Below, piece after piece: positions 8,904-28,930 of a DNA stretch of 37,339 bases. The DNA lies in the IMG/VR virus record IMGVR_UViG_2585427777_000002, positions 1-37,339 of that record. One strand, 5' to 3'. The position numbers and the translations under genes are program-made. Position 1 is the stretch's first letter, and every line of letters starts with the position of its first letter. A model generated the notes under the pieces. It was not told the DNA's origin. It worked only from the letters and a program-made list of their open reading frames with translations, and ran no database searches. The DNA is from a virus (taxonomy: Duplodnaviria > Heunggongvirae > Uroviricota > Caudoviricetes).

Positions 8904-9173
8904 GATGGCGTCTCCACTTAGCGAATTACATCACCACCGCTGAGACCAATCAGATGGTGGTGAACTGAACGGAGTTGGTCTTACCGGCCTAAGTGGTACC
9001 GGCGTCCTTTCGGACCCCCATTCAGCCCACCATAATTCTGGCATGACTGTGCTATACGCATAAAAAAACCACGTCTGGCGTGGTATGCGCCACTTAGTAA
9101 TCCGGGAGACCAATCCCGGCACTGGATTTTGCCAGTGCCTGATTACTATGGCACAAGAGGAATGCGATGTAAA
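8904..9173 (-). promoter_or_regulatory. structured 5' leader with attenuator upstream of the AntA-type antirepressor gene (paralogue of 6287..6552)
   Basis: Same three-helix arrangement as the left copy; attenuator region (about 9062..9095) has stems GTGG/CCAC and CCACG/CGTGG plus T7 run, and a downstream hairpin GGTCC-gaaa-GGACC replaces GGCACC-gaaa-GGTGCC. Confidence 0.5.
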
Positions 9174-9759: not shown

Positions 9760-9776
9760 ATTACCTTTAAGGTAAT
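9760..9776. promoter_or_regulatory. operator-like palindrome ATTACCTTTAAGGTAAT upstream of gene 9796
   Basis: Perfect TTACC-N5-GGTAA 20 bp upstream of the start; -35-like TTGATC 17 bp before it. Confidence 0.6.
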
Positions 9777-10344: not shown

Positions 10345-13300
10345 TTAACGCATCACCGGATCCACTTGGTTTATTAGTGGCGCAATCCAGAACAGGTTAT
10401 TGCCGGGTATCAGGGTTCGGACATTATGCACAATACGATCACCGGCATCACCATTCAACACTCCTGCGGTCACATCAATGATGCTATCCGCAAGACCAAA
10501 TGACGGTCCGAATAGAGATCCTACGAATCCACGACTGGCATACCTAGACTGTGTGCCAGTGCCAAATAAAGCCCCCAGCCCAACAGCACCACCAGTAGCC
10601 TTTTCAGCCATGTTGTTATATTCCATCAATGGCCCAAGAATACCGGATCTATCTATACCCTCAAGCACCAGCTTCTCTGGTGACCAGTCAACATTTTTCC
10701 CTTTCGATGCTTCTTTAAGCGCATAGACCAGTGAGCCAAGAGCAATCTGAAATGCAGTGCCATAATAAAATTGCGCAGTTCCTTCCTGTAACCCACCAAG
10801 TAGCGCACGGTTGTATGAAGCCGTTGTGAATGATTTAAACTGAAATATCGTTCGCCCCATTGGAGTACTCGCCCATAAAGGTGTGTCACCAATACCGGGG
10901 GTGATGATAGTGTTATTAACGTCTTTCAGAACCGCTGACTGGAATACTCCGGCAACGTACTGATCGTCCCATTTATCAAAGTTACCAATGTGCCATCCAT
11001 CAATTACCTCACCATGTTTCTCGAACTCACTGCGAATACGCGCAGCCATATTGTCGTTGATACCGAGTTTTGCCATGCGACGTGCAGAAAACGCACCAGA
11101 CAAAATACCGTCTGACGTGAGCATTCCGTTCATGGATTTGTTTATGTCATTAAATCGATCCATGAGTGTCAGCTTGCCGAAGGCATCAGTAATTCGCTCC
11201 ATTCCTGCTTCGACTGCTGTTGTCCTGGAAGAACTGTCAACAAGATCACCAATTGCACGAGAACGTGAATGTAGTACAGCTTCCAATCCAATCCCCATCT
11301 TCAACATCTCTTCTTTGCTGGCCTTAAATGCCGGTGATTGGGATATCTGAGAAGCATAGCCTTTCATGGTGTTACGGAAACCATTAACCATAACCCCTCT
11401 GGCCAGATCTGGAATAGCTGATACTGTCATTCCACCGAGTTTGGTCGTGAAGTTCACATCCCGCAGAAAAGCGCCAGCACGAACAAAAAACGAAGACGGA
11501 TCATCAGGCATACCATATGTACCAACAAGACGATCGCGTAATGCTGTTATGTCTCTGAGATCATTTGCTCTTGATTTTGAAAGTCTGGACTGTTCTTTCC
11601 GTAATTCCTTTTCGTACTTTCGCATTAATGAATCGAGTTTACCCTGAGGAACAACTTCACCATTGCTCTCATAACGTGCTTTCAGATTTGCCACACTTTC
11701 GTCATATTTCGCCTTTATTTTTTCAGGCACTTCCCGTAACAGACTGTCATATTCGTCCTCAATTAATTGCAGACGCTCAGTCATAGTTCGTTTGCCAAAT
11801 GTTCTCGTCAACTCAATTTCTGCTGCCGCTTCACGGATATGACGTTGCAGCACGTAATTCACATCACTTTCAAGATAATCCCTGATAAGACTATCAGGAA
11901 CATTTAATGTTCTTTCTTTCGTACTACCTGCGGCTTTTACAGAAAATACGCTGACAAAATCCTGTGGAACCTTAGCACCAGTAATTTTATTAATTACGAT
12001 ATCCGCTGCAATTTCAGCATCCTCAGGATCCAGTGTTTTATTTCCTCTCGACCACCAGTCAACCAAAATACGTCGAAATTTATCGCGTTCACTGATTATT
12101 TTTCCAACTTTATATATGCGTGGGAAATAGCTTGCCTGGCCTAATGCTTTCAGTTCTTCATCTGGCGGCAATAAACCAAGCTTTTGCATTTCAACTTTCA
12201 CCCGATTTAATACAGTTCGCATCGCCTGCGCCGTTTCCTGAACAACAGGATTAGCATGCACATCACCGCTTCGCATAGCATTCCCAACCTGCTGACGAAA
12301 TGAATCAAAACTCATGTCACCACCATCAGCTTTATACTTTGCGTATGCCTGTTTATTTCCGACAACAACAGCAGCTTCTTCACGCTGCCATCCACGTGTA
12401 CGGGTTTCTACAGCTACCGGTGTTTCAATCCCCCTTTCATTTCCTTTAAGGGTGAAATTATTTTCGGCTAACTCCAGCGTTGTTTTTCGCACCGTCTTGG
12501 ACGGAGACTCCATTAACCTTGTCAAAGGAGTAAGATAGCTCCCTGCTTTCCATGCAGCCTTTCCAACCCACCCACCGGAAACAGGGGTTAAATCATCCAG
12601 AGTCGCTGTATCAATTTTCATAGCACCAACACTACCACCATCGGAAAGCGAAGCGGCAGCCCTGTCAGTCGCTGATGTAATGCTCATATTATCAAGAGCA
12701 TCAGCAACCTCACGTGTGGCTGCAGCCCGGACGGATGGCGAAAGCGCAACACCAGCACTGGCAAACACGCCGCTCATCATCGCACCCGCTGCAACGTGAG
12801 CGGCACTTTCACCCCATGAGCGTGTTATTTGCTGATTATTCAGTACAACCTCGCTTAATGCTGTACCGGCAGCACCAATCGCAATCTGTGAGCCAATACG
12901 CGCCAGTGCCCCTCCTTGAGCACCGGGAATAAACATTGACGCAACAGTAACCGGATCCATTCCCGCAGCAATACTGGCAAGGGTTCCAACTACGCCAGCA
13001 TCAGACAATAAACGTCTGTCTTCATTTTCATCATCTATCTGCTGCTTAATCCACGCCGTTTCCTCTGGCGATCGGGAATCTGCAAATTTCGCCCCCCAGT
13101 ATTCATAACCGTGCAACTCATTTTTATCAGCATATGGGTTATAACCCTCGACCGGTTCAAACTGTCTGGCAGGACGGAAAAAACCAGCCAGAATATTGTT
13201 CTGTCGTATTGCTGCGGCAAGCAATGAAGGCTCTTTGGGACGAGGTTCAGGGTTCTTACCTTCTGGCGGATGCACATCAAAACTCTGTTCATCAGGTTCA

Positions 13301-13365
13301 GGAATGGCGAAACCAGCAGAAATAAATCCGTTATTGTTTGATTCAGATACAGGATAGAACGGCAT
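10345..13365 (-). CDS. large internal virion/ejection protein (T7 gp15/gp16-like by synteny)
   Basis: 1006 aa; last of four consecutive genes following tail tubular protein B, the position of the T7 internal core proteins. Confidence 0.65.
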   Translation of the reverse strand: MPFYPVSESNNNGFISAGFAIPEPDEQSFDVHPPEGKNPEPRPKEPSLLAAAIRQNNILAGFFRPARQFEPVEGYNPYADKNELHGYEYWGAKFADSRSPEETAWIKQQIDDENEDRRLLSDAGVVGTLASIAAGMDPVTVASMFIPGAQGGALARIGSQIAIGAAGTALSEVVLNNQQITRSWGESAAHVAAGAMMSGVFASAGVALSPSVRAAATREVADALDNMSITSATDRAAASLSDGGSVGAMKIDTATLDDLTPVSGGWVGKAAWKAGSYLTPLTRLMESPSKTVRKTTLELAENNFTLKGNERGIETPVAVETRTRGWQREEAAVVVGNKQAYAKYKADGGDMSFDSFRQQVGNAMRSGDVHANPVVQETAQAMRTVLNRVKVEMQKLGLLPPDEELKALGQASYFPRIYKVGKIISERDKFRRILVDWWSRGNKTLDPEDAEIAADIVINKITGAKVPQDFVSVFSVKAAGSTKERTLNVPDSLIRDYLESDVNYVLQRHIREAAAEIELTRTFGKRTMTERLQLIEDEYDSLLREVPEKIKAKYDESVANLKARYESNGEVVPQGKLDSLMRKYEKELRKEQSRLSKSRANDLRDITALRDRLVGTYGMPDDPSSFFVRAGAFLRDVNFTTKLGGMTVSAIPDLARGVMVNGFRNTMKGYASQISQSPAFKASKEEMLKMGIGLEAVLHSRSRAIGDLVDSSSRTTAVEAGMERITDAFGKLTLMDRFNDINKSMNGMLTSDGILSGAFSARRMAKLGINDNMAARIRSEFEKHGEVIDGWHIGNFDKWDDQYVAGVFQSAVLKDVNNTIITPGIGDTPLWASTPMGRTIFQFKSFTTASYNRALLGGLQEGTAQFYYGTAFQIALGSLVYALKEASKGKNVDWSPEKLVLEGIDRSGILGPLMEYNNMAEKATGGAVGLGALFGTGTQSRYASRGFVGSLFGPSFGLADSIIDVTAGVLNGDAGDRIVHNVRTLIPGNNLFWIAPLINQVDPVMR

Positions 13366-16073
13366 TATTTAGATCCCCACGAAAAGTAATCTTTAAATTT
13401 GTCCATACGTTCGTTATGCAGGCGCTGATACTGCTCATCCAGAGCGCGATGCTTGTCTTTGAAGTTTCGTATAGCCTGTCCACGCATAATTTCTTCCTGC
13501 TCGTGCTGCTCCCGTTCCTGCTGCATTTTCTTATAAGGTTCCCAATCTTCTAGTGATGGCCCCCAGCGCATCTGTCTTCCATGCTTGTCATAAAATAAAT
13601 CATCCCTCGTAATACCATCTTTATCTTTTGTTCTGATCACAACTGAATAAAGCTTATCTCTCGGAGTTGATAAGTCAGGAACGAGAATCAACTCACCTCC
13701 AACCAGTGAGCGTGGCTTATTCAGTCCCAATGCACCAGCCTCAGTTGAAGGTCGGTTAAATGAAGGAGCCGGTTTATGTAAGTCATCGCCATACATGATT
13801 TTTTCTTTTTCAGCCTTCCATTGCGCTGCAATCCAGCCTGACGGCCCATATTGATAAAGCGCCTCCGGTGCATATTTCATAAACTGTGCTTCCCCGTTGA
13901 CCTCGCTGATACTCCAAGTGCGGGCTATCTGCTGGTTGGTCATTTGCTTCGCTACGTCAGCGTTACCACCAGCAAGGCGATAGTTAACGTCATACAGCAT
14001 CTGATAGTCATTGCGAAAGAGCGCTGCTTCCGGCGTCTGGTCATCCGCAGACGGATCCCAACGGAACCACTGCGCCATATTGCTGACAGCAGAATTGGCT
14101 GCGCTGTCACGCTCTTTTTTGTATTCTCTTGTACTCTGAACAGATGAGAGCTGCGCCCTTAGTGCATCTGTCTGGTTGTATGTCTTACTCTGCGCTTCCA
14201 CAATAGCAGCATCTGAAGACATCCCTGCATCAGTTAGTTGCTTAACAGTCAGATAAAAACCCTGCATATCCTTCGGCATATTTCCAATAGATGCATTGTC
14301 TGTTTCATATAACCGACTAAACAGTTCAGCCGCATTTTTAACCACTTCCTGATTGCTGGATCGGGATACTGCTGAAAGCTGCGTGATGACCTGCGAAGGC
14401 ATTATGCCAGTCTGAGCCACAAGCCGAACAACCCCATCATGAGTGGAGGCATCATTAATACGAAAGTTCTGCGCCATTTCTGTGTAATCAGCAGCTTTCT
14501 GCATTGACTTGTTGCTTGGGTCTAATTTCTCACCTATTGTCAGCGCCTCATTAAATCTGCGTGAATCCCGTTGCGCCTGAATTGCTTCATTTGATCTCTG
14601 AAGCAATGCAGACAATTTTCCGTAAGCATCGAGTTTTAACGCATAGTGAGGATCGTTAACCTCAGGCTTCACTTTCTGCATTTCTTCTTGCTGCTGAGAA
14701 GGAGGCAAATACTGAATTGCCTGGAATATTCTCGCGTTATCAATCGCTATATCCAGTTGGTTGATTATTTTATCTGCGTTTTTTCCATACCCCCTGATGA
14801 TGGTCTCCTGAGCCGGTATATAATCTGGAACCTCACCGTTATATAGCTGGGCCATGGTGTTATTAATAGCTGGCTCAAGCTGTTCTAATATTAACTTCCT
14901 TTGCTTTTCTATCTGACTATTAGCAAGGTTATCTATTTGATAAATAGTCAGCGGATCCATTCCAGTTTTATTTTTTCTATATCGGGAAAGCCACCCTTGT
15001 GTTTCTGATGGAAGATTTCTGATAAATTCTTCTTCTGATATTTCACCTTTACGTGGATCACCGACTTTGGCGATCAGTTTATCCACGTTACCCATCCCCC
15101 AGTTATATGCTGCTCCGGCCAATATTTCGGAGCCGTACTTACCATACAGTTGATTTACATAGTCACTGGCGAGCATTTCATGCTGTTGTTCGTCCGTAGG
15201 GTTGTATTCAACGCCACGCTTGGCCGCCAGTTCTTTCCCTGTGCCCGGCATTAACTGGTATTTCCCCTGGGCTCTCTCTCCAGAAGATGTTATCGGTCCT
15301 TCAAGAAGACTACCATCAGGATTAAAATGTCGATCACCTGATTCAACAAGGCGTATGGCACGCATGTCCATGCCTCCAGAATCATTTTTCTGAAACAGAC
15401 CATTTAGCCATCCTTCTGGATTGGCAGCGGCATAATTCTTCGCCCGCGTTTCTGTGGCACTGCGATCATCACTTTCTATTTCTTCCAGAATGCGTTCTTG
15501 TGACCATCCCCTGGCAGCTCCATATCTGGCAATGGCTACCATTCTGGAATTTCTGGCTAAAGTGGCAGTTTGCGGGTCATTCCAGGCATCCGCTTCATTT
15601 TGTATCCATAATTTTCTCGTTGCCTGATATTGCTCATCTTCATAGGCATTTGTCTGCCCTATCTCATGTCTGAGAACTCCAGTACTGAACTGAATTTTCT
15701 GTGTTCTGGCTTGTTGCAAAAACATATTTCTTGCTGCTTCATCAGTCAATGAAGCAGCTATTTCTTCCACATCCTGATCAAATCCAGATATGTACTCTTG
15801 CCCCTTACCAATCGCATTTTTGCCTTGTTGTGCATAAAAACCGGTTTGAGGGTTATAAAGACGTTCATTGCTGCGCTGATTAAGCTGAAGGATGGCATCC
15901 TGAGACAATGCAACATTCGCTTTCTGCCTGGCTTCACCATATGCCACCGCATACTGATCTGCGACATTCGCCAGCACCTGACCTGCTTGAGGAACATCGA
16001 AGGTCTGAAAACCACCGGTTTGCACACCACGACTTTGCACCTGGCGTCCGGATGTAGTAGGAACAACAGGCAT
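13365..16073 (-). CDS. internal virion protein with lytic transglycosylase (SLT) domain
   Basis: 902 aa; motif RAIRLVESGDRHF...AQGKYQLMPGTG...AYNWGMGNV typical of SLT-domain proteins; T7 gp15/gp16-equivalent position. Confidence 0.8.
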   Translation of the reverse strand: MPVVPTTSGRQVQSRGVQTGGFQTFDVPQAGQVLANVADQYAVAYGEARQKANVALSQDAILQLNQRSNERLYNPQTGFYAQQGKNAIGKGQEYISGFDQDVEEIAASLTDEAARNMFLQQARTQKIQFSTGVLRHEIGQTNAYEDEQYQATRKLWIQNEADAWNDPQTATLARNSRMVAIARYGAARGWSQERILEEIESDDRSATETRAKNYAAANPEGWLNGLFQKNDSGGMDMRAIRLVESGDRHFNPDGSLLEGPITSSGERAQGKYQLMPGTGKELAAKRGVEYNPTDEQQHEMLASDYVNQLYGKYGSEILAGAAYNWGMGNVDKLIAKVGDPRKGEISEEEFIRNLPSETQGWLSRYRKNKTGMDPLTIYQIDNLANSQIEKQRKLILEQLEPAINNTMAQLYNGEVPDYIPAQETIIRGYGKNADKIINQLDIAIDNARIFQAIQYLPPSQQQEEMQKVKPEVNDPHYALKLDAYGKLSALLQRSNEAIQAQRDSRRFNEALTIGEKLDPSNKSMQKAADYTEMAQNFRINDASTHDGVVRLVAQTGIMPSQVITQLSAVSRSSNQEVVKNAAELFSRLYETDNASIGNMPKDMQGFYLTVKQLTDAGMSSDAAIVEAQSKTYNQTDALRAQLSSVQSTREYKKERDSAANSAVSNMAQWFRWDPSADDQTPEAALFRNDYQMLYDVNYRLAGGNADVAKQMTNQQIARTWSISEVNGEAQFMKYAPEALYQYGPSGWIAAQWKAEKEKIMYGDDLHKPAPSFNRPSTEAGALGLNKPRSLVGGELILVPDLSTPRDKLYSVVIRTKDKDGITRDDLFYDKHGRQMRWGPSLEDWEPYKKMQQEREQHEQEEIMRGQAIRNFKDKHRALDEQYQRLHNERMDKFKDYFSWGSK

Positions 16074-16648
16074 CAGTAACCTCCTATTTTGAATCGGGAG
16101 TCAGAATTCATAAAACCTGAGTTAGATAACATTGGCGTCCCACCACTAGATGTACTTCCTTTAGAGAACGGACTCCACGTCCCACCAAACATCTGGTACG
16201 CACCGTATGCCTTCAGAGGCGCAGTGAGCAATGTTGTTGCTGCTCCCACATTCCCCTGTTTACGGGCTGAACTGGCTTCTGCTTTATAGTTGGCAGCCTG
16301 AACCTGATAACCGTAAGCCTCGCGTTGCGCGTTATTCACCGTCGTCAGCGAATCAAGAGCGCCAAACTGGGCAGTGTCGCCAAATATATCCAGCGCGTTA
16401 CCGGTAGATAAATCGGCGCCGGTCGCCCCCATTGTCGCCGCCTGTGTACCAAGCCGCTGTCGGGTCTCTCTGCGCCGTTGCTCAGCTTCAGCGTTACCTC
16501 TGTTTATTGCATCATTTGCCTGAGCTGTGGCTATATCTGCGTTCGCTTCTGCAACCTTCGAGGCATACTTTCCCTGTTGGTACTGGGTGTATGCCTGAAT
16601 GCCACTCATGGCGAGCATTGCGCCACCAGCAATAACCGGATCGCACAT
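16073..16648 (-). CDS. internal virion protein B (T7 gp14-like)
   Basis: 191 aa; N-terminus MCDPVIAGGAMLAMSGIQAYTQ resembles the Cys-containing N-terminus of T7 gp14; synteny. Confidence 0.6.
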   Translation of the reverse strand: MCDPVIAGGAMLAMSGIQAYTQYQQGKYASKVAEANADIATAQANDAINRGNAEAEQRRRETRQRLGTQAATMGATGADLSTGNALDIFGDTAQFGALDSLTTVNNAQREAYGYQVQAANYKAEASSARKQGNVGAATTLLTAPLKAYGAYQMFGGTWSPFSKGSTSSGGTPMLSNSGFMNSDSRFKIGGY

Positions 16649-17112
16649 TATTTTCTCTCCATGTGAAATCTGTGGAAATTAAGACCAAGAGCACCATAAG
16701 GCGCGGCTTCTTCAAGCCTGAATCCAAGCCAGTGCAGCCATGCTTTGGCAACATGGTTTCGCTCATCGACGTAGTTTTCCAGGCGCGGATAAACTGCCAG
16801 CATCTGCTGCAATACAGGGCGGCAGTGGCGAAGAAATGTCTTCTGATATTTTTCAATACGGCTGGTTCCTACCAGCCAGGGCGTACCATTGCCACCGATC
16901 ATTGACGCCGGAGATACGCCAAACATGGTTACCAGTTCTCCGTTCGCAAATCCTGACCAGGCCATAGTCGCAGTGCGAAGACCAACACGCAGCGCATCTT
17001 CGGTAGTCATCAGCGATACCGCATACAGTTCGTCAATATCAGCCTGACGAACATCCGGCAAAATCATCTGAAGATGCTCTTCGGTAGCGGGAACAATTCG
17101 AACATCGATCAT
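16648..17112 (-). CDS. hypothetical virion protein (T7 gp13 position)
   Basis: 154 aa between the gp12-like and gp14-like genes; assigned by synteny only. Confidence 0.45.
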   Translation of the reverse strand: MIDVRIVPATEEHLQMILPDVRQADIDELYAVSLMTTEDALRVGLRTATMAWSGFANGELVTMFGVSPASMIGGNGTPWLVGTSRIEKYQKTFLRHCRPVLQQMLAVYPRLENYVDERNHVAKAWLHWLGFRLEEAAPYGALGLNFHRFHMERK

Positions 17113-19583
17113 CAGAATCCCCCAACAGTAAGGCGAGGAATAACGGCAAGAACAGACAGCGGCAACGGATCAAGCTGACGGATTTTTACACGTCCGTTTT
17201 TGCCCCAGTTACTGTCCAGTTTCACTTCTACTTTTCCGGTAGCATCATCAACAGGATCATCGTAGAACTCGAATTCACGCTGTGGATATTCGTACCATTT
17301 ACCGCCGGGCGTAGTCGCCCAGATGCCGCGACTGGCATTCACAACCAGAGTAACGGAGGGGATCACCTGTTTTTTGTCCAGCAGCGTTTCCTGTCCGTTA
17401 ATGTTGATATCCAGTGTTTCGAATTCAGCAGTTATTGGCAGGCCGATGTGCACTACAGCCCCCGGAGATTCCAGCGTGACGGCACCTCCGGAAACCACTT
17501 TCTGTGGTTCCACGTTCGCATCAGAGAGAATGTTTACGGTCTGGCCTTCAAGATGAGACAGGCCTCCAAATGTCCGGCGCGCCATCTGCCAGTTCGTGGT
17601 GGCCACATTCCTGAGGGATGGCGGGACGTTCCTGTTAGCACGAACCACTACAGCGGTATTGCTGGTTACAGAAATAATGTCGCAACGTAATTCTTTTGAC
17701 ACCTCATCGCCAGTATCAGGATCAGTTCCGGTATAAGGGAACTGTAGTTGCGCGCCGACATCACTACTGGTGAAGTACGCACCACCAGAAACACTGATTG
17801 TATATTCCGCGCGGTAATCCCATTCGCCAGAACCACCAGTGATGGTCATCGTTCTGTCAGACGTATTTCTTCCATCATAGCTAAGGCCAGAATCAACAAA
17901 GAAAGCATCTTCATCGCTGGTAAATAAACGGCTGGACAGTCTCTCGATGTATCTCACTGTTTGCCCGTTAACGGTCCTGTTAACGGCGAAATACACCGCA
18001 TCTTCATTGCCTTCGCTGATACTGCATGTGCTTTCATATTTTCCGGTACTGGATTGTGGTGCCCATGCAAAAACCTGCTGATCACGCAAATAGGTCATCA
18101 CCAGTAATTTACCGTCATCACGAATGCAGAAGGCGCTGGAGTAAGGGACAATAGAGAAGCACCAGTCAACAATGCTGTGCTTCTGAAAAAGATGATTGGC
18201 AAGGATGGTCAGGTCGTTCCCCTGATAGCCGTCAACATCGAATGAGTAGGCCAGATCACGGACAACACTGCCTTTCTCCTGGACGAACAGAGCAATATTC
18301 GCCACGGCAATTGGTGGGACATTGCTCGAGCCATTTGATCCCTGAGAGCTGAATGCAAATGATGATGGGGTTAACACTTTGTTCTGGTCGCCGGTGATGA
18401 CGTACTCACCTCCGGAAGTCAGTGCCACCAGCGAACCGACATCAATCAGGTGGCGGATCTCATTAACCTGACGCCCGGCATAGGTGTAGATAATTCTGTC
18501 GTCATCCTGCGTAGGATTGCTTTTGCCAAAATCCTTATAATCCCCGGTACGGCTGGCCCAGATAGTCTGAGGGAACGCAGTCGATGCGGCGAAGTAAAGA
18601 CGTTGTTGATAATAAACAACAGTGCCAGGATAACCATTAACACTGTTCCAGGCATATTTAGCCCATTTATAGCTGGCATTATCCTCGCCAACGACCTGCG
18701 AAGGGATATAGGAAATCACCTCAGCAGTTGCAGTAGTGCCATTTGCAGCAGTGATACGGGCAATGCCAAAACCACTGTGCAGATACTCCCACTCAATGCC
18801 AGTATCATCATCACCGGATCCGCCCCAGCCATCCCATGATGTGCCTTCTGTATGCGAAGGGCGCAAAGTACCTGTTTTGCCTGCTGTAACGGCGCGATAG
18901 TAGTTACTGTCTGCACGGCGAATATCGCCAACCGACGTACTCTTACTGGTTTCCCATACCGGCACAGAATCCACTGCAGGCTGTTCCAGATAGAACAATT
19001 TGCCTACCTGCTCCGCGCCAAAAATAGAGGCGCTTGCCGTTAACGTAATTGTCCCGGTGCTGGCGCTGGCATAAACCGTCACTGACTCGTCAATATTGAT
19101 ATCTTCAAATGGCCCGTTCTTCGTTACCACATCAACCAGTTGCCAGTTGTCATGAGCATATCTGCGCAACTCTTTCGGCGGGTATGCCGGGTGAACCAGC
19201 GTAAGCACGTCGGCGCTTTGCGTGAATTTAATTCGGAACAGATCGGCTTCAGTATATGGCGTGGCAATTTCATAAATAACATTGCTGCTGTTCAGCACCA
19301 ACGCACCATCTTTGATAACGCGCATGTACTGGTGTCCGAACTCCAGAGCATAGGTCTGAACCGTCGAGAACTGGAACGGGATCAGGCGGCATTTCCGATT
19401 TGGGTATTTGGCGGCACCGACAAAACGCGTACCAGGTCGATTCTCAACGCCGCCATACTGCCGCACGATAAAGTTATCGCACTTGCGCAATGCCACCTGG
19501 TACTTCGCCATGTCAATACGCCCGTACAACGACGGTCCAATCTCACCACCGGCAAAGCTGGGCTGGATCCAACTGATAGCCAT
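17112..19583 (-). CDS. tail tubular protein B (T7 gp12-like)
   Basis: 823 aa; N-terminus MAISWIQPSFAGGEIGPSLYGRID resembles T7 gp12; follows the gp11-like gene. Confidence 0.8.
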   Translation of the reverse strand: MAISWIQPSFAGGEIGPSLYGRIDMAKYQVALRKCDNFIVRQYGGVENRPGTRFVGAAKYPNRKCRLIPFQFSTVQTYALEFGHQYMRVIKDGALVLNSSNVIYEIATPYTEADLFRIKFTQSADVLTLVHPAYPPKELRRYAHDNWQLVDVVTKNGPFEDINIDESVTVYASASTGTITLTASASIFGAEQVGKLFYLEQPAVDSVPVWETSKSTSVGDIRRADSNYYRAVTAGKTGTLRPSHTEGTSWDGWGGSGDDDTGIEWEYLHSGFGIARITAANGTTATAEVISYIPSQVVGEDNASYKWAKYAWNSVNGYPGTVVYYQQRLYFAASTAFPQTIWASRTGDYKDFGKSNPTQDDDRIIYTYAGRQVNEIRHLIDVGSLVALTSGGEYVITGDQNKVLTPSSFAFSSQGSNGSSNVPPIAVANIALFVQEKGSVVRDLAYSFDVDGYQGNDLTILANHLFQKHSIVDWCFSIVPYSSAFCIRDDGKLLVMTYLRDQQVFAWAPQSSTGKYESTCSISEGNEDAVYFAVNRTVNGQTVRYIERLSSRLFTSDEDAFFVDSGLSYDGRNTSDRTMTITGGSGEWDYRAEYTISVSGGAYFTSSDVGAQLQFPYTGTDPDTGDEVSKELRCDIISVTSNTAVVVRANRNVPPSLRNVATTNWQMARRTFGGLSHLEGQTVNILSDANVEPQKVVSGGAVTLESPGAVVHIGLPITAEFETLDININGQETLLDKKQVIPSVTLVVNASRGIWATTPGGKWYEYPQREFEFYDDPVDDATGKVEVKLDSNWGKNGRVKIRQLDPLPLSVLAVIPRLTVGGF

Positions 19584-22782: not shown

Positions 22783-23075
22783 TCCTGTTCACTGGCCTCT
22801 TTGGCCATCTTCAAATACTGTTCAGGGCAATGCGCCATAACGCGCTGAAACAGTTCCAGCGCCAGATTGCGTTGCCCCTCATTAAATGCCATTGCCATAG
22901 CGTCCATCGGTGAGATAGCGGAAAACACACGGCCTTTCTCCAGCACCGACCAGACAACGCGACGCCCCTGTTCACTGCTCATGACAAAGCGAATGTCATC
23001 AATTTCACGCTGCGCCATGTCACGTTGCTTACGGGCGTTTTCTTCTTTCAGTTGATCGTCTTCGTAATCTGTCAT
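22779..23075 (-). CDS. hypothetical small acidic protein
   Basis: 98 aa ORF translationally coupled between portal and scaffold. Confidence 0.5.
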   Translation of the reverse strand: MTDYEDDQLKEENARKQRDMAQREIDDIRFVMSSEQGRRVVWSVLEKGRVFSAISPMDAMAMAFNEGQRNLALELFQRVMAHCPEQYLKMAKEASEQE

Positions 23076-24751
23076 TGTGATTGCCCACCCTGACCACTAA
23101 CTGCATTCGCCATAGCTGACAACACACTCGGATCCGAAGTTTTAGCTTCGCTTAGCGTCTTGGCCCCCTGTGCCGCCGCCATCCCCATCGCCATCATTTG
23201 TTGCTGCTGTTGTTGCTGTGCCCGTTGCTGGCGAGCCTGCTCAACCTGTTCCTGCGGAACAATGACGGTTGGAGACACTCCGGACATATCAGCGAATGCA
23301 TCGATCGCCTGATCAACGTTGAGTTTGTCGAGAGCTTCTGGTTTCGCTTGCGCAAGTTGACCAATGAAGTTGACCGTAGACGCCAGACTGGACAGGCCGA
23401 TAGACTTCTGCGCCTGAGCCATGACGGAAATGTATTCGACCTTCAGGGGCATACCTTCCATCGCGTCAGGCGGTGGCGGCAGCATGTTTTTACGCACCAT
23501 CATCGAGAAAGCGCGGTCAATGAGAGGATTAAGACATTCGTCGTTCAGACGCTCCAGAACCGGCCCCAACATCAGAAGTTTTTCTTCTTTCATTTCGATC
23601 ACTGCTTCAACAGGCATCGAGCGGGTATTGATGTTCTGCAACATCATGAACAGATCGACAAAGTAGGCGCTGTTAATGATTTGACGAGTGTCCTGAATGT
23701 CTGCCACCAAATCTGCTGTACTGGGGTTAACCAGATAAGCAGGCCTGAAACCATCCTGACCAGTAATCTGATCGATATACGTGATGTCGCCAGGAAGAAG
23801 GGAGGCACGCTGATTCTTGAGGGAAGTCGGAGCAACCATCGGCGGATTGGTGGCTTTATCAATCAACTGCGACTTGCGCTTCTGGAGAAGCTGCAATGCC
23901 TTAACAGGTCCAAGCGCCAGCATACCCGGGCATGATGATCCATAAACATCTTCGCCGTTAACTTCCCAGCGCGGAGCCATAATTGGAAACTGATCGAATC
24001 CGGACTCACGCAACAACTTGTCGTTATCGCCACCAACCTCGTAATAAACCGATTTGAATGGCTTGTTCTTGCTATCCAGCTTCGATGTATCGCGGTCAAT
24101 GTTCGGGTAAACCGAATGCATCACTTCAATCCACTTCTCGTAGGTGCCGCTTTCCCACATGCTTTTTACGGATTCGCTGACGTTATTTAGCCCGAACTCC
24201 TGAACAAGCTGACGAACAGTCATAGAGAACTTGCGAAAACAGGTGTCAACACTGCCACGAGGTGAGTTAGCCAGGTAGTAACTGCCTATCGGGAATGGCA
24301 TTGTGCGAATGATGTCCTCGTCATCCTCCAGCACTGCCATTGCACCAGTGCTGTATGTGCCGAGGCTTCCGTATAACTGCGGCAGAGACTGATAGAGATT
24401 CGACTTATTGAACATATCGTTCATGCGGTTCTGCACCGCCTAAAGCCACAACTTAACAGGGCCATAATCCATCATTTCAGGATCTGGCGTAGCCAGGCGA
24501 AACCACGGACGCGCGGGGCTTGTGATGCCTGACATCATGCCGCTGGCGAGAGTGCGCGCCGCCATAGTCCCGGTCGAATCAATAATACGTGTATTGCGTC
24601 GATCGTTACGGTTGACCTCAGAAGTCAGAAAGCGGGAACCACGCGGGTTGATGTAATCACTCAACTCGCGCCAGTGCGGCTCGAACGATTGACGCTCGCT
24701 TTCAAGTTGTGCGAACTGTTTGTTCAATCGCTCTTTAGTTGTTTCCGCCAT
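23072..24751 (-). CDS. portal protein (T7 gp8-like), reading frame interrupted by an in-frame TAG at 24440..24442
   Basis: ORFs 24440..24751 and 23072..24436 are in the same frame with a single TAG between them; the N-terminal piece carries ARTLASGMMSGITSPARPWFRL resembling the T7 gp8 N-terminal region; Q-rich C-terminus; GGAG RBS before ATG 24751. Confidence 0.75.
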
Positions 24752-24765
24752 TTCAATGACTCCGG

Positions 24766-24972
24766 TTACTGACCAAGCAGCGTTTTACCGCTGGTATTAG
24801 CGGTTGATGTGTCGCCCCGAGAACCGGTAAGCAGCGTAGAACTACGACCAGCAGCAGCGCGACGGCGACGTGTTTCTTCGTCGCGGGCATCAACAACGGC
24901 GGCATCCTGCTCCTGTGGTGCTGCCTGAACTTCTGGTGTTGCAGGCACTGATGGTGAGCTACCCATGCACAT
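24766..24972 (-). CDS. hypothetical small protein
   Basis: 68 aa ORF with GGAG RBS 8 nt upstream. Confidence 0.4.
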   Translation of the reverse strand: MCMGSSPSVPATPEVQAAPQEQDAAVVDARDEETRRRRAAAGRSSTLLTGSRGDTSTANTSGKTLLGQ

Positions 24973-25061
24973 ATCAATGACTCCGTACGCAATTAAATTA
25001 TTACCAATTTAACCACATATGATTTATTTATCGTAGACAGTTGACATTTAACGCGCGAATT

Positions 25062-25078
25062 ATTACCTTTAAGGTAAC
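25062..25078. promoter_or_regulatory. operator-like palindrome ATTACCTTTAAGGTAAC with upstream TTGACA
   Basis: Perfect TTACC-N5-GGTAA; TTGACA at 25041..25046; divergent region between gene 24972 and the tRNA. Confidence 0.6.
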
Positions 25079-25399
25079 TAAAGAGTTCATTCCGGTTACT
25101 AACCTGACTGGCTTGTCGTTAAATTGAACAGGTGGAGTGAGCTTTTATTTTGAGCAGTACGGCGTATGGCACATGCGACGATAGCGGTCTGGATACGTTT
25201 AAGGGGCACCCTCCCTTGCTCGGGCAAACGAACCAGGTAGCCGGAATGTGCAAGTCGAGCGGTTTTATTCCGCGCACGGGGATTCACCATCCCGGCGATT
25301 CGGTGTGACGCCTCGGAAGAGACGAGGGTACAACGATGAGAGCATTTATGGAGCTGCGACAAAGTGTGGCGCATTAACAGGCTAAGTGCTCTCAGCGTT

Positions 25400-25476
25400 G
25401 TGGCATTAGCTCAGCTGGACAGAGCAACCGCCTTCTAAGCGGTTGGTCGCAGGTTCGAATCCTGCATGCCACGCCA
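25400..25476 (+). tRNA. tRNA-Arg (anticodon UCU), phage-encoded
   Basis: 77 nt folded by eye: 7-bp acceptor stem GTGGCAT/ATGCCAC, D-arm GCTC/GAGC, anticodon stem ACCGC/GCGGT with loop CTTCTAA, T-arm GCAGG-TTCGAAT-CCTGC, discriminator G and CCA end. Confidence 0.9.
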
Positions 25477-25519
25477 GAATCACGCCCAAGGACCGTGATG
25501 CCAGAAGTTCCAGGTGCTT

Positions 25520-25561
25520 GGCGGTGATAGTTTCCCTTGAAGGACTATCACCGCCCTTTTT
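25520..25561 (+). terminator. rho-independent terminator downstream of the tRNA
   Basis: 12-bp stem GGCGGTGATAGT/ACTATCACCGCC followed by CTTTTT. Confidence 0.65.
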
Positions 25562-25639
25562 ACAGCAGGACGCCATTGCGATGACTTCATGCTGTAAACC
25601 AGTACAGCCACGGAAGGCATAACTCATTGCTTCCAGTTC

Positions 25640-25663
25640 GCCCGGTTCGCCGGGCATTTTTTT
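25640..25663 (+). terminator. hairpin plus T-run immediately upstream of gene 25675 (terminator or attenuator)
   Basis: GCCCGG-ttcg-CCGGGC followed by TTTTTTT, then the RBS AAGGTGA. Confidence 0.5.
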
Positions 25664-25674
25664 AAGGTGAGATC

Positions 25675-26094
25675 ATGAAGACAATTGATATGTTGGCTAA
25701 GTATCTAAATGAATGGCCATTAAAATATTCTCGTATCGTTCAGGCTGAAGACTGCATTTTTTATGGCGTTCTTGCTGGTAATGAAATGCATTACGAAGTA
25801 ATTCAGAGTGAGGGACTGGCTGGGTTAACTCTTAGCGAAGACCATGGTACTAGCGTTACGTTCCATGACTGGATAACAGCACAACGTTCTGAAATGGAAA
25901 AAGGCGATGTTTTTGATATTTCTCGCGCTGTTTACGCTAAAGCAAAAAGTGATAATGATTACATGAGCGAACACTTATACAACATGAAGTTGCAATGCCT
26001 GCATGCGGCGCTTATTCAGAATGGGCACTTCGATAAAACAAGTGCCATCAATATTGCGGAAGCCATCAACGCTGGATTTAATGCCATTAAGTAA
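25675..26094 (+). CDS. hypothetical protein (cargo gene between terminase and portal)
   Basis: 139 aa with AAGGTGA RBS; opposite strand to the structural operon; flanked by terminators; no family recognised. Confidence 0.6.
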   Translation: MKTIDMLAKYLNEWPLKYSRIVQAEDCIFYGVLAGNEMHYEVIQSEGLAGLTLSEDHGTSVTFHDWITAQRSEMEKGDVFDISRAVYAKAKSDNDYMSEHLYNMKLQCLHAALIQNGHFDKTSAINIAEAINAGFNAIK

Positions 26095-26098
26095 CACC

Positions 26099-26110
26099 GT
26101 GACATGTCAC
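26099..26110. repeat. 12-bp perfect palindrome GTGACATGTCAC
   Basis: Second copy of the palindrome at 8204..8215. Confidence 0.5.
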
Positions 26111-26114
26111 AAAC

Positions 26115-26141
26115 AGCCAGCCGATGAGCTGGCTTTGTTTT
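26115..26141 (+). terminator. rho-independent terminator of gene 25675..26094
   Basis: Stem AGCCAGC/GCTGGCT followed by TTGTTTT. Confidence 0.6.
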
Positions 26142-26184: not shown

Positions 26185-27660
26185 TTAAGCATATGGATCG
26201 TAATCTGTGATGGCCTTGCCTTGCTGGTTCTGCTGCCCGGGAATTCGCAGACGCTTTGACACAGGGAAAGCAAACGTCAGCAGTAGCGCATCGCCTTTAC
26301 CAGGAGAACGCCCAAGCCGCTCCTTGATATCTTCCTTCGGTTCGATAACGATTTTACCGTCCACTCGAACTTTATACTCTGCCGCCGACAGGTCGTCCGC
26401 TGTTTCCTGGTCATCCAGCATCCCGCCCAGCCTCAGCCATGTCTTGCATGAGTTGAACATCTCCCCACGCTTGTTGAGCATCTGCGGGTCAGTAGACGCG
26501 CCACCGAACGGAACAAGTTGCCATGTGCGCCCCCAACCATCACCGATTGACTTCAGACCGGTACCGTAACCGAAGTCGATGAACACCGCGTCAGCCTGAT
26601 ACTGGTCTTCAAAGTCAGCGATACGCTTCGCCATAATCAGATCGTCGGTGGTCTTGTTACCAGTCCATAGCACCTTACTGTGCAGCCCCTGCCGCAGGTA
26701 TATCACAGCGTCATCAACGCCGGAGTATGCCGGGTCAACGCCGATTATCACCGGAGCATGTGCCACCTGCGCAGCGGTTACCACCCGTTTCATTGCCTCG
26801 TCAGTAAGACCGGTAGGGATAAACTGCAATTCAGATGCATCAGGGAATATGCCGCGCACACGGATTTTAACGAAGTCGCTGTCTTCCCCGTAGTCATCAA
26901 CCCATTTCTGCAACTGCTGTTTGTTAGTGCCTTCCACCGTCCGGCTGTCAATCTGCACAGTTTTCCAGCGGTGTTTATATTTGCGGAAACATTCGCGGAA
27001 ACGCCCGGTATTACGCGTCGGGTTTCCGAACGCCACCCAGATAATCTCAGTGTCTTCGTCCGTTAGCGCACCCTCGGCAACTTCCCACACCAGATCCGCA
27101 ATGTTCGACGCTTCATCGAATACCACGATGATGCGTTTGCGCTCGTTGTGTAGTCCGGCAAATGCCTCAGTGTTGTGCTCAGACCAGGGGATTGCGTCAG
27201 CTCGCCAACGCTTGTCGTGCCCAGGGTCATTGCTGTACATCGCGGTAGCGGTACAGGTAAACCAGTCTTTCGTGATAGCAAGGTTCGACCACTTGATAAT
27301 TTCCGGCCAGGTCTTCGTTCGTAGCTGGTTGTCGGTGTTGGCGGTCACCACGACCTTACAATCCTCGCAAGTGGACATGCCCCAGTTGATCAACATTGAG
27401 ATGAATGCTGATTTACCAATACCGTGACCCGAAGCACGTGCCAGCATAAGCGGCTGATAGCGCGTCTCTGGATTCTGCAGGTGATCACGTATCTCTCGGA
27501 ACGCATCAGCCTGCCACTGACGTGGGCCGGTAGCATGTGCCAGTTCAGTCCCCTCTTCCCCCCACGGGAACGCATAGAGGGCATAGCCAAGCGGATCGTG
27601 AGTGAACCCTGCAATATCCTCGATTAACTGCTCTTCAGGAGATAACGCTGTATCTGTCAC
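26185..27660 (-). CDS. terminase large subunit
   Basis: 491 aa; ATPase-like N-terminal half and nuclease-like C-terminal half; translationally coupled to the small subunit gene. Confidence 0.85.
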   Translation of the reverse strand: MTDTALSPEEQLIEDIAGFTHDPLGYALYAFPWGEEGTELAHATGPRQWQADAFREIRDHLQNPETRYQPLMLARASGHGIGKSAFISMLINWGMSTCEDCKVVVTANTDNQLRTKTWPEIIKWSNLAITKDWFTCTATAMYSNDPGHDKRWRADAIPWSEHNTEAFAGLHNERKRIIVVFDEASNIADLVWEVAEGALTDEDTEIIWVAFGNPTRNTGRFRECFRKYKHRWKTVQIDSRTVEGTNKQQLQKWVDDYGEDSDFVKIRVRGIFPDASELQFIPTGLTDEAMKRVVTAAQVAHAPVIIGVDPAYSGVDDAVIYLRQGLHSKVLWTGNKTTDDLIMAKRIADFEDQYQADAVFIDFGYGTGLKSIGDGWGRTWQLVPFGGASTDPQMLNKRGEMFNSCKTWLRLGGMLDDQETADDLSAAEYKVRVDGKIVIEPKEDIKERLGRSPGKGDALLLTFAFPVSKRLRIPGQQNQQGKAITDYDPYA

Positions 27661-28256
27661 TGATTACCATCCTGACGTTCTTTGAGTCGCTTCCTGGCTG
27701 CTGCTATGCGATCAGCAATTGTCACATTCACATTAACATCCAGGCGTTCTTTGAATGCGTTGACGTCGACGTGCTTACCAATCAGTTCGAGGTTCTTCAC
27801 CTTGTCAGGCCATTTAATTTTTTTGAGGATTGTCTCTATCGAATCCTCGTTCATGTTCATGATGGTCGATGACAGATCAAAGCCGCTAAGCGTAGTGCGC
27901 CAGATTTTCGGCCACTCGCGGATTGGCTTAAGGCTCCCATCGTCGTTGAGGATGTCGATCACGTCCATCTGGTCGATCTCCACCAGGCGCATGAGAACGT
28001 AATCAGCACTGACGCGCATTCGTTTGTTGCGCTCCTCCATCAACTCGGCAATCCGTTTCTGAATGCGTTCATCGCGCATCATGACACTGGCTTTAACTGC
28101 CGCTGTATTTGGGGAGAATCCTGCGTTAATCGCAGCCTGAGTCTGATTTTCAGGCGTTTTGATGTATGACTGGCAATAAGCCTCCTGCATTGCTGTTAGT
28201 GGCTTAAATTGCGTTGATTTGCGTTTATAGGTTTTAGGTTCAGCAGGCATCATAAC
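27657..28256 (-). CDS. terminase small subunit
   Basis: ORF 27657..28331; start taken at MMPAEPKTY because upstream codons lie in the operator/direct-repeat region; motif QEAYCQSYIKTPENQTQAAINAGFSPNTAAVKASVMMR typical of Terminase_2-type small subunits. Confidence 0.75.
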   Translation of the reverse strand, partial: VMMPAEPKTYKRKSTQFKPLTAMQEAYCQSYIKTPENQTQAAINAGFSPNTAAVKASVMMRDERIQKRIAELMEERNKRMRVSADYVLMRLVEIDQMDVIDILNDDGSLKPIREWPKIWRTTLSGFDLSSTIMNMNEDSIETILKKIKWPDKVKNLELIGKHVDVNAFKERLDVNVNVTIADRIAAARKRLKERQDGNQ

Positions 28257-28269
28257 CACCGTGGTAATA

Positions 28270-28286
28270 GTTACCGTTGTGGTAAT
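28270..28286. promoter_or_regulatory. operator-like palindrome GTTACCGTTGTGGTAAT at the start of the packaging/structural operon
   Basis: Perfect TTACC-N5-GGTAA inside the direct repeat GTGGTAATAGT-N8-GTGGTAATAGT, just downstream of a minus-strand terminator. Confidence 0.55.
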
Positions 28287-28290
28287 AGTA

Positions 28291-28322
28291 CCATGCAAAA
28301 TAAAGCCGCCATAGTTGGCGGC
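28291..28322 (-). terminator. rho-independent terminator separating early genes from the terminase operon
   Basis: Stem GCCGCC/GGCGGC followed on the minus strand by TTTATTTTG, directly after the stop of gene 28328..28930. Confidence 0.6.
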
Positions 28323-28327
28323 AGTAT

Positions 28328-28930
28328 TCAAAGTCCATCAAATTCATCGTAAAAACTCTCGTCAAGATACCCTTCCCATTTACCGCGAATGAAAATTACA
28401 TCCTCGCCGCAAGGGTGCTGACTGTCGATAACTATATCCCTCCTGGCGCAACCATACTTATGCATGAGAAATTTAACCTCTTTCGGAAAATTTGCTGAGT
28501 TATCTCTCATATCTTCAAGGTCGTAGCGTATTTTTGGCATAACACCTTCGTAATATTCACGCTGTTCGTTGAGTTTTGATTTTGTCTCTTCAAGCTCAGC
28601 AACCAGTTTTCGAAGCCCTTCAATCTCACCATTGCGAGCAATGAGGTCGCGGCACATGCTTTCGTTCTCATCCAGCAGTGCCAGCACGGTAGCTGGACTG
28701 GCTGCGGCGATGAATTCAGCATTGGCCTGCTGTTCCATTTGGAAATCGTCATCGAAACCGCTTTCAGGATGTGCTCCTTCAATTCTGCAAATGGGAAGAT
28801 ATCCAACAACTTCACGATGAATTAACGCATCATCACAATCAAATCGGCTCTCTCCATATTCGAGCGACCATACACCACACGTTGCTTTTTCTGCCTTAGC
28901 ACGCAGTGCCTGATAATCAATCTTGCTCAC
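28328..28930 (-). CDS. hypothetical early protein (possibly Ead/Ea22-like)
   Basis: 200 aa; N-terminus MSKIDYQALRAKAEKATCGVW recalled as similar to Ead/Ea22-like prophage proteins; translationally coupled. Confidence 0.55.
   Translation of the reverse strand: MSKIDYQALRAKAEKATCGVWSLEYGESRFDCDDALIHREVVGYLPICRIEGAHPESGFDDDFQMEQQANAEFIAAASPATVLALLDENESMCRDLIARNGEIEGLRKLVAELEETKSKLNEQREYYEGVMPKIRYDLEDMRDNSANFPKEVKFLMHKYGCARRDIVIDSQHPCGEDVIFIRGKWEGYLDESFYDEFDGL

Follow-up and report, generated by a model that had tools for sequence, protein, structure and literature searches.

The described phage RNAs closest to the element reported here include put and the C4 and CI RNAs. The put RNA makes RNA polymerase resistant to terminators in cis, by binding the beta-prime zinc-binding domain. 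The C4 and CI RNAs are matured by tRNA-processing enzymes through tRNA mimicry. The present element lies in a viral DNA stretch of 37,339 nucleotides (nt), positions 1 to 37,339 of IMG/VR record IMGVR_UViG_2585427777_000002, referred to below as the window. Its DNA shares about 98% identity with prophages found in numerous E. coli chromosomes and 90-97% with phiV10 and further Uetakevirus phages (epsilon15-like podoviruses), from which the window is recognised as an E. coli prophage of the epsilon15/phiV10 (Uetakevirus) type. Window positions 25034..26141 constitute one repressor-controlled early transcription unit of this prophage. Within this unit, segment 25158..25399 is, as judged from sequence comparison, a member of a structured-RNA family whose pseudoknotted core (P1-P6, about 175 nt) is followed by a closing hairpin (P7). 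The parts of the RNA and of its 5′ leader are:

25081..25146, plus strand: 5′ leader hairpin AAGAGTTCATTCC ... GGAGTGAGCTTTT, from the minimum-free-energy fold; same module type as P7
25158..25331, plus strand: core of the structured RNA (covariance model R1, 139.8 bits, E 3e-40)
25160..25168 with 25172..25180, plus strand: P1
25183..25189, plus strand: invariant AGCGGTC
25188..25192 with 25233..25237, plus strand: P2, enclosing the variable hairpin P3
25237..25256, plus strand: invariant GTAGCCGGAATGTGCAAGTC
25259..25273, plus strand: P4
25279..25293, plus strand: P5
25302..25305, plus strand: GGTG, pairing with the P5 loop CACC to form the pseudoknot
25311..25327, plus strand: P6 hairpin, loop GAAGAGA
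25331..25399, plus strand: P7 closing hairpin, a 42-nt insert enclosed by the paired strands CAACGATGAGAGCA and TGCTCTCAGCGTT(G)

A distant BLAST search with the 321-nt leader found bases 81..321 (window 25159..25399) to be 70-82% identical to unannotated DNA of unrelated phages. A pattern taken from the 5′ end matched at least 120 viral contigs, giving 113 distinct versions. For the structure test, 27 diverse cores were aligned with MAFFT on sequence only, and the fold (P1, P2/P3, P5, pseudoknot and P6) was read from the alignment. In these cores, 94.2% of the cells form standard pairs, whereas sliding the 3′ partners by 1-3 columns lowers this to 28-51%; both sides change in 11 of the 28 pairs, and none of 500 shuffles reaches the observed score. 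The covariance model built from this alignment (R1) gave 101 hits in 100 sources, corresponding to 77 distinct sequences, with a single copy in the window. Across the 77 distinct hits the paired fraction is 95.2%, versus 28-50% with slid partners. The pseudoknot pair is C-G in 56 R1 sequences, A-U in 18 and broken in none, while P1 displays a clean G-C to A-U exchange. Covariation between the P7 strands, measured by comparing the duplex energies of cognate and non-cognate strands, is also evident (-17.8 versus -13.6 kcal/mol; 0 of 10,000 permutations reach the observed mean). Compensatory changes are found in five elements of the core (four helices and the pseudoknot) and in P7. Relatives such as locus L096 carry ACAACATGAAAGCGCACTCC...GGAGTGCGCTTCC at the place of the 5′ leader hairpin of the window. 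One viral contig (L024) has two tandem cores at 3996..4154 and 4803..4959, both on the minus strand and with a spacing of about 800 nt.

A first-pass annotation of the window had noted a leader devoid of any convincing open reading frame (ORF) and suggested that it might contain an unannotated RNA, while also allowing for a degraded ORF. The first two points are borne out, the RNA by its covariation-supported structure and lack of Rfam match. The degraded ORF is not: no frame is open in all cores and relatives, and core lengths (148-180 nt) cover every modulo-3 class. Scanning 25079..25399 against Rfam 15 yielded no match at the gathering score or at E values up to 10, and no Rfam match to the core was seen in 18 related loci. 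Identity with C4, isrK, DicF, AgvB, AsxR, GOLLD or ROOL was rejected for want of an Rfam match at the leader. Literature searches by sequence string and keyword found no description of the core RNA. The leader RNA thus appears undescribed, the tRNA and the cargo slot of the unit being already known, and there is a real chance that it represents a new class rather than another structured leader of a phage early operon.

Core plus P7 are present in 1840 of 5426 complete E. coli genomes (34%), at 2474 places of which 554 are on plasmids; none of 30 sampled records has any annotation under the match. Outside E. coli, true copies were found in Kosakonia, Phytobacter, Superficieibacter and E. whittamii, all Enterobacteriaceae. 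The taxonomic range is under-sampled, because a 15-mer scan of 596 Gb of genome contigs returned mostly chance matches (5 of the 120 listed matches are real). The core is absent from the K-12 CPS-53 remnant, which may help explain why it went unnoticed.

Single-sequence folding of the leader is not significant (z = -1.06), so that the structure is seen by comparative analysis only. This z value, and the ordinary nature of the tRNA and cargo slot, both annotated in relatives, could be taken to mean that nothing special is involved: a phage tRNA gene with a long leader or decayed ORF, followed by a cargo gene with its own signals. Such a view is contradicted already by the compensatory changes, by the lack of an open frame, by the occurrence in a third of E. 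coli genomes and by the 70-82% identity of the leader in unrelated lineages where no tRNA adjoins it. We give it next to no credence.

RNAalifold proposes an alternative fold, a long-range pairing between the invariant hexamers GCACAT and ATGTGC that excludes P1. Covariation cannot test this pairing because both segments are invariant; both folds are plausible, since P1 is also supported by its G-C to A-U covariation. The RNA might then act as a riboswitch-like attenuator, in which a ligand or physiological signal shifts the balance between the P1 hairpin and the hexamer pairing and so sets passage through the terminators. The preference of RNAalifold and the many invariant unpaired positions would fit such a device. 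However, the terminator lies at least 190 nt beyond the core with the tRNA in between, and is not an adjacent expression platform; moreover, the long-range pairing cannot show covariation and the neighbouring genes suggest no ligand. An attenuator is, in our judgment, highly improbable. As a separate observation, complementary CCUUG/CAAGG strings recur in the loops of P3 (25220..25226), of the trailer hairpin (25485..25493) and of terminator T1 (25533..25545), the latter two described below, and in the invariant single-stranded GCAAG at 25250..25254. These strings may mediate loop-loop or switching contacts, for instance of CCUUG with GCAAG.

Transcription of the unit is predicted to depend on two overlapping elements:

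25034..25069, plus strand: sigma-70-like promoter, TTGACA (25041..25046), 17 nt, TACCTT; read from the sequence and a promoter scan
25063..25077, no strand assigned: repressor operator, perfect 7-1-7 palindrome TTACCTT-T-AAGGTAA, overlapping the -10 region

The promoter scan's own choice differs (TAGACA-18-AATTAT), and the exact -10 element and transcription start of the window promoter are presumptive. The operator palindrome has an exact second copy at 9761..9775. Allowing up to three mismatches, 16 sites occur in the window as against 1.16 expected, and none of 100 shuffles reaches 16. This excess identifies the palindrome as a dispersed prophage-repressor operator and not a chance occurrence; its presence at the promoter therefore makes the unit an early, repressor-controlled transcript, as the TTGACA promoter with operator noted in the first-pass annotation had implied. 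A repressor site is annotated in the equivalent region of the epsilon15 record. Copies of the operator, TTACCTTNAAGGTAA, are scattered over the prophage (5891, 6271, 7419, 9175, 9761, 25063, 30013, 31916, 33013, 33074 and others), a dispersal that the scattered C1 operators of P1 resemble.

The core is followed by a series of modules:

25400..25476, plus strand: tRNA-Arg, anticodon UCU (ARAGORN; Rfam RF00005, 71.7 bits versus a gathering score of 29)
25479..25499, plus strand: trailer hairpin ATCACG-CCCAAGGAC-CGTGAT, conserved after the tRNA or tRNA-like module in many loci
25520..25561, plus strand: terminator T1, 14-bp stem then CTTTTT (terminator scan; fold -23.6 kcal/mol)
25563..25634, plus strand: spacer with two hairpins (25563..25594 and 25612..25634), containing a LexA-like box at 25592..25607
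25640..25663, plus strand: terminator T2, GCCCGG-TTCG-CCGGGC then ATTTTTTT (terminator scan), directly before the ribosome-binding site
25675..26094, plus strand: cargo ORF of 139 amino acids (aa), 40% GC, PHROG 4846

The tRNA-Arg(UCU), already annotated in relatives, is real by both the ARAGORN and Rfam calls. Arginyl-tRNA synthetase of E. coli identifies its tRNAs by a D-loop A20, by C35 and U36, and by a purine at position 73. The sequence of the window tRNA has these identity features (D loop AGCUGGACA, anticodon loop CUUCUAA, discriminator G), and it has an encoded CCA. The 3′ strand of P7 stops at base 1 of the tRNA, which would make the foot of P7 the place of the RNase P cut. The same order of modules is found across loci: promoter, optional P7-type hairpin, core, P7, tRNA or tRNA-like module, ATCACG...CGTGAT hairpin and terminator. 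The slot is filled by tRNA-Arg(UCU) in 28 of 128 loci, abutting P7 every time, and in other loci by a tRNA-like domain. This domain has a 7-bp acceptor-like stem (GUGGUGA/UCACCAC), a T-like arm and a D arm of the form GCGC-AGGCUGAU-GCGC, whose stem may instead be GCAC/GUGC or GGCG/CGCC; the anticodon arm is replaced by a variable insert. At one locus (L094) this module scores in Rfam as a tRNA with a large insertion. Modules of this type also occur on the other side of the core: in P1 a tRNA-Ile ends 14 nt upstream of it, and in Superficieibacter a tRNA-like module lies directly upstream. Comparison of these loci shows the leader, the tRNA and the first terminator, which the first-pass annotation had kept separate, as constituents of one modular RNA unit.

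BLAST detected leader-like DNA in P1, P7, D6 and SJ46, between trnI and ban; in the lambdoid phages mEp460, cdtI and the Stx2c/Stx2a converting phages; in Klebsiella and Enterobacter phages; and in one phage isolated on Stenotrophomonas (BUCT708). Of 137 loci, 73 have a cI-like gene upstream on the same strand, and in 39 of these a yfdQ-like gene is found further downstream. The Uetakevirus site accounts for about 43 loci and the P1-like type for at least 12, the P1 copy itself lying within the C1-controlled ban operon. Three phage lineages therefore make the core RNA from a promoter kept shut by the prophage repressor. Five lambdoid phages with differing immunity regions (cdtI, mEp460, Stx2a_1447, mEp390 and BUCT708) share one order: cI, cI terminator, OL/PL operators with TTGACA, 10-110 nt, core, tRNA-like domain, terminator and early-left genes. 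The OL/PL operators of the lambdoid loci resemble the OR operators, and the slot held by the core is the nutL position in lambda and the putL position in HK022 and HK639. A fold-based scan found a strong hairpin and T run 3′ of the core in 119 of the 137 loci, mostly 300-500 nt downstream. No N gene was recognised in the core-bearing lambdoid phages, either by Pfam and PHROG searches of the downstream ORFs or in the mEp460 annotation; absence of N has been reported (PMC12315714) for phages of the LLS/ST64B kind, whose early-left operon is of the same type. The PL leader of ST64B (L255 7230..8060, minus strand) contains P7-type hairpins, a tRNA-like domain, GCTGTGTGAAGTCTT and a terminator as in the core loci. 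Its 5′ region of about 300 nt differs and has no R1 hit, yet contains GTAGCC...GTGCAAGC. The downstream module set thus has more than one kind of "head".

The explanation that we favour, with a probability of about 40%, is that the core is part of a put-like, cis-acting antitermination leader, which would carry RNA polymerase past T1 and T2 to the cargo gene while tRNA processing releases the tRNA-Arg. By analogy with HK022, derepression would let polymerase start at the operator-bearing promoter, and the nascent core RNA, like the put RNA, would act on the transcription complex in cis; in a looser variant, the core would shield the long untranslated transcript from termination. Polymerase would then pass both terminators, which in the window lie between the core and the ORF, or, in the lambdoid phages, read into the early-left operon. 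RNase P cutting at 25399/25400 and 3′ trimming would free the tRNA-Arg(UCU), for decoding of the AGA codons enriched in tail and cargo genes.

Several observations weigh against this explanation. We infer the antitermination step from position alone. Homology to put is absent in sequence and in structure, and put is less than half as large as the core. Between the P1 copy and ban there is no terminator, and this copy is devoid of P7 and of the 3′ modules, and the copy in SopranoGao follows lysis genes, not a repressor gene. In the window, just one small gene lies downstream. Strict-consensus promoter-like sites occur upstream of the core in 34% of the loci, against 9% of control windows. Furthermore, a deletion in epsilon15 has removed the core together with the tRNA and half of T1 (L007 1549..1700, compared with L011 and L040). 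It is bounded by two copies of a repeat, TTCCCTTGATGCT, present in the P3 loop and in the terminator loop of relatives, and the remnant of the unit is annotated as an RNase III site. Since epsilon15 is viable despite the deletion, the unit is dispensable, at least for laboratory growth. The P1 and SopranoGao copies likewise speak against an essential role. Finally, tRNA or tRNA-like modules are found on either side of the core (P1; L248). These flanking modules look like an excision device for a discrete stable RNA, for which a purely co-transcriptional element would have no use.

The core could indeed be part of a stable trans-acting noncoding RNA of about 240 nt. RNase P would cut 5′ of the downstream module, 3′ processing of the tRNA would trim the transcript after the upstream module, and P7 would seal the 3′ end; the early RNA would then bind or titrate a host component such as RNA polymerase, the ribosome, an RNase or a defence protein. 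The arrangement of the modules argues for this possibility, in particular the exact abutment of tRNA-Arg and P7, the tRNA-Ile upstream of the P1 copy and the upstream module of Superficieibacter. The tRNA-like modules keep acceptor stem, D arm and T-like arm, with covariation visible by eye, and one of them passes as a tRNA. The long invariant unpaired stretches, shared across phage lineages of one host family, are as expected for a binding surface. There are precedents: the C4 precursor of P1/P7 and the CI RNA of P4 are phage leader RNAs matured by RNase P, and GOLLD and ROOL are large phage RNAs found beside tRNAs. Yet in most loci the 5′ end of such an RNA is undefined apart from the transcription start, and the lambdoid unit has its terminator between PL and the early-left genes. 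As a terminator follows PL and no N gene is recognisable, an antitermination activity would still be needed in the lambdoid phages. We consider an excised trans-acting RNA the main rival to the put-like leader, possible if rather unlikely.

The element might also be a protein-dependent site of the nut or rrn kind, in which P6 or a neighbouring hairpin would serve as boxB for an unrecognised N-like protein and the 3′ strand of P7 as boxA for NusB/NusE. The P6 loop GAAGAGA resembles the GAAGA loop of lambda nutL boxB, and the 3′ strands of P7 are GCTCT-rich, often containing GCTCTTT. Variants L086, L030, L078 and L042 carry, right after P6, a hairpin and either TGCTCTTTAACAA, an exact rrn boxA, or AGCTCTTTAATAA, and an ORF of family PHROG 14171 in L078 and mEp390 has an Arg-rich stretch near its N terminus. 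In the window, however, the boxA candidate GCTCTCAG matches 5 of 8 consensus positions and is base-paired in a covarying helix; no single-stranded match to the boxA consensus (GCTCTTTAACAA or CGCTCTTA) was found there, GTGCTCTCAGCG lying inside P7. In addition, neither Pfam nor PHROG revealed an N family, there is no candidate N gene in the Uetakevirus unit, and an invariant, pseudoknotted core of 175 nt far exceeds the needs of a nut site. A protein-dependent site is thus an unlikely alternative to the put-like leader. The PHROG 14171 ORFs, with their Arg-rich stretch, are the first early-left ORF in both L078 (1081..1485, minus strand) and mEp390 (L130 3063..3566, plus strand). Their product could be an unrecognised N-like factor.

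On the boldest reading, the core would define a new class of host-directed phage RNA. It would then be either a processive antiterminator that works as RNA only, the second such family after put and structurally unrelated to it, or a large RNA made early and excised via interchangeable tRNA or tRNA-like cassettes. We advance this only tentatively, with the odds somewhat against it. If true, a new RNA class would be in use in three unrelated temperate lineages while being unannotated in about one third of E. coli genomes. It would also be the early-left antitermination device so far missing in lambdoid phages that have no recognisable N (SfV, cdtI, Stx2c/Stx2a types). No way is known in which such phages, those converting for Shiga toxin and cdt included, get past the strong terminator that lies about 400 nt after PL. 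Because the core RNA sits where the device should be, early-left antitermination is now testable by a simple reporter construct. In addition, the presence of a real tRNA and of a tRNA-like domain in the same slot shows how phage tRNA genes can be gained or lost as cassettes, and transcription of the phage tRNA-Arg would start at a promoter with a prophage-repressor operator, not at a constitutive one.

Codon usage bears on the role of the tRNA. AGA is a rare codon in E. coli and is read by tRNA-Arg(UCU). Its frequency in the window is 8.0 per 1000 codons, with a concentration in the tail genes (10345..19583), and it accounts for 7 of the 11 Arg codons of the low-GC cargo gene at 2106..2909. 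The count is zero in the head genes, the terminase genes and the 139-aa ORF. The earlier proposal that the tRNA may serve AGA codons in AT-rich cargo genes is thus partly supported: it would hold for the 2106..2909 gene and extend to the tail genes, but not to the cargo gene of the unit itself.

The region surrounding the unit includes the following features:

23072..24751, minus strand: portal gene
24766..24972, minus strand: epsilon15 gp3 homologue
26099..26110, no strand assigned: 12-nt palindrome GTGACATGTCAC, with a second exact copy at 8204..8215
26115..26141, no strand assigned: terminator T3 (hairpin 26115..26134; terminator scan), between the cargo ORF and the convergent terminase gene
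26185..27660, minus strand: large terminase gene, TerL
27657..28331, minus strand: small terminase gene

All features listed by the first-pass annotation are present where it had placed them. The plus-strand unit does interrupt the minus-strand packaging and head genes, lying between TerL and the gp3 homologue and portal genes, all three on the minus strand. It is no recent insertion as the term "inserted" had suggested, being kept at the same site across Uetakevirus relatives and ancestral to the genus. Terminator-like hairpins with T runs were confirmed at all three places (25520..25555, 25640..25655 and 26115..26134). The hairpin equivalent to T2 is annotated as a rho-independent terminator in the epsilon15 record, and a terminator is annotated at the T3 place, on the terminase strand, in that of phiV10. 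The base of T1 resembles the 3′ half of DicF; identity with DicF (RF00039) was rejected, the score at 25509..25556 being 16.9 bits against a gathering score of 48. The spacer between T1 and T2 is kept in Uetakevirus relatives regardless of the ORF that follows. Its LexA-like box, put forward in the earlier annotation, proved weak (12 of 20 matches to TACTG(TA)5CAGTA) and poorly conserved, the distal ACAG half-site being kept in 19 of 34 relatives. A much better, near-consensus LexA box, CTGTATAAATATACAG, lies at 5945..5960 in the immunity region. The palindrome GTGACATGTCAC occurs exactly twice, and both copies adjoin a terminator hairpin between convergent genes.

The 139-aa gene had been described as an orphan, which it is not: its family is PHROG 4846, and about 100 clusters of homologues are spread over the Enterobacteriaceae (Escherichia, Salmonella, Citrobacter, Klebsiella and Leclercia). 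The protein gave no Pfam and no PDB match, and its AlphaFold2 model (pLDDT 67, pTM 0.35) is too poor for a fold search to be useful. The GC content of the ORF is 0.40, versus 0.51-0.54 in the neighbouring genes. Among loci of the Uetakevirus type, the slot holds this ORF in 8 and a PF13876 (N4 gp49 / Sf6 gp66) gene in 13, the latter including phiV10 and epsilon15, and other ORFs in the rest. With its variable content, low GC and terminators on both sides, the slot behaves as a cargo (moron) position.

Elsewhere in the window, the isrK and C4 antisense RNA pair (immunity RNAs of the P1/P7 type) is present in two inverted copies, at 6322..6504 (plus strand) and 8953..9138 (minus strand), both exceeding the Rfam gathering score. 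The portal gene is interrupted by an in-frame TAG (24437..24439, minus strand; TGGCTT TAG GCGGTG), the same codon being GAG in the prophage of E. coli SCU-101. Either an amber mutation, leaving the prophage defective, or an error in sequencing could account for the TAG.

Parts of the unit have parallels in several known systems. Like phage morons, the ORF slot has its own terminators, lower GC (0.40) and variable content among relatives. Phage-borne argU-like tRNA genes are free-standing, whereas the window tRNA is a cassette inside a larger conserved RNA unit. The rrn leader (boxB-boxA-boxC) and the lambda nut sites are, like the unit, untranslated structured leaders with GCTCT-rich, boxA-like strings, and rrn spacers have tRNAs embedded in the transcript as the unit does; neither has a counterpart of the conserved core, and the window copy lacks a good boxA. 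GOLLD and ROOL resemble the core in being large, ornate, covariation-supported RNAs of phages and prophages, typically beside tRNA genes. The core differs from them in giving no Rfam hit, in its smaller size (about 240 nt, with about 400 nt for the whole unit), in its confinement to Enterobacteriaceae as sampled and in its fixed place behind repressor-controlled promoters.

The C4 RNA of P1/P7 (RF01695) and the CI RNA of P4 are, like the core, phage RNAs in the leader of an early or immunity operon. The core RNA is much larger and has no Rfam match at the locus; and in C4 and CI the tRNA mimic is the regulator itself, whereas in the core unit the mimic is a separate module.

The put RNAs of HK022 and HK639 are, like the core, cis-encoded structured RNAs located just after a repressor-controlled PL and before terminators, in lambdoid phages without a recognisable N. 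Identity with put was rejected, R1 having no hit in HK022 (L008) or in HK639 (L133), where a putL-like RNA is annotated. Nor was a second, putR-like copy of the core found after PR in the part of the mEp460 record searched (19000..44510). HK022 putL, located through a published primer, has short strings in common with the core (ACGGCG, CATGCGTCG and AGCG). A put RNA is about 70 nt long with two stem-loops and is not linked to tRNAs, whereas the core, at about 175 nt, has a pseudoknot and five or six helices and is linked to tRNA or tRNA-like modules. For all these differences, the core RNA occupies the place of putL, and by analogy it may work in the same way.

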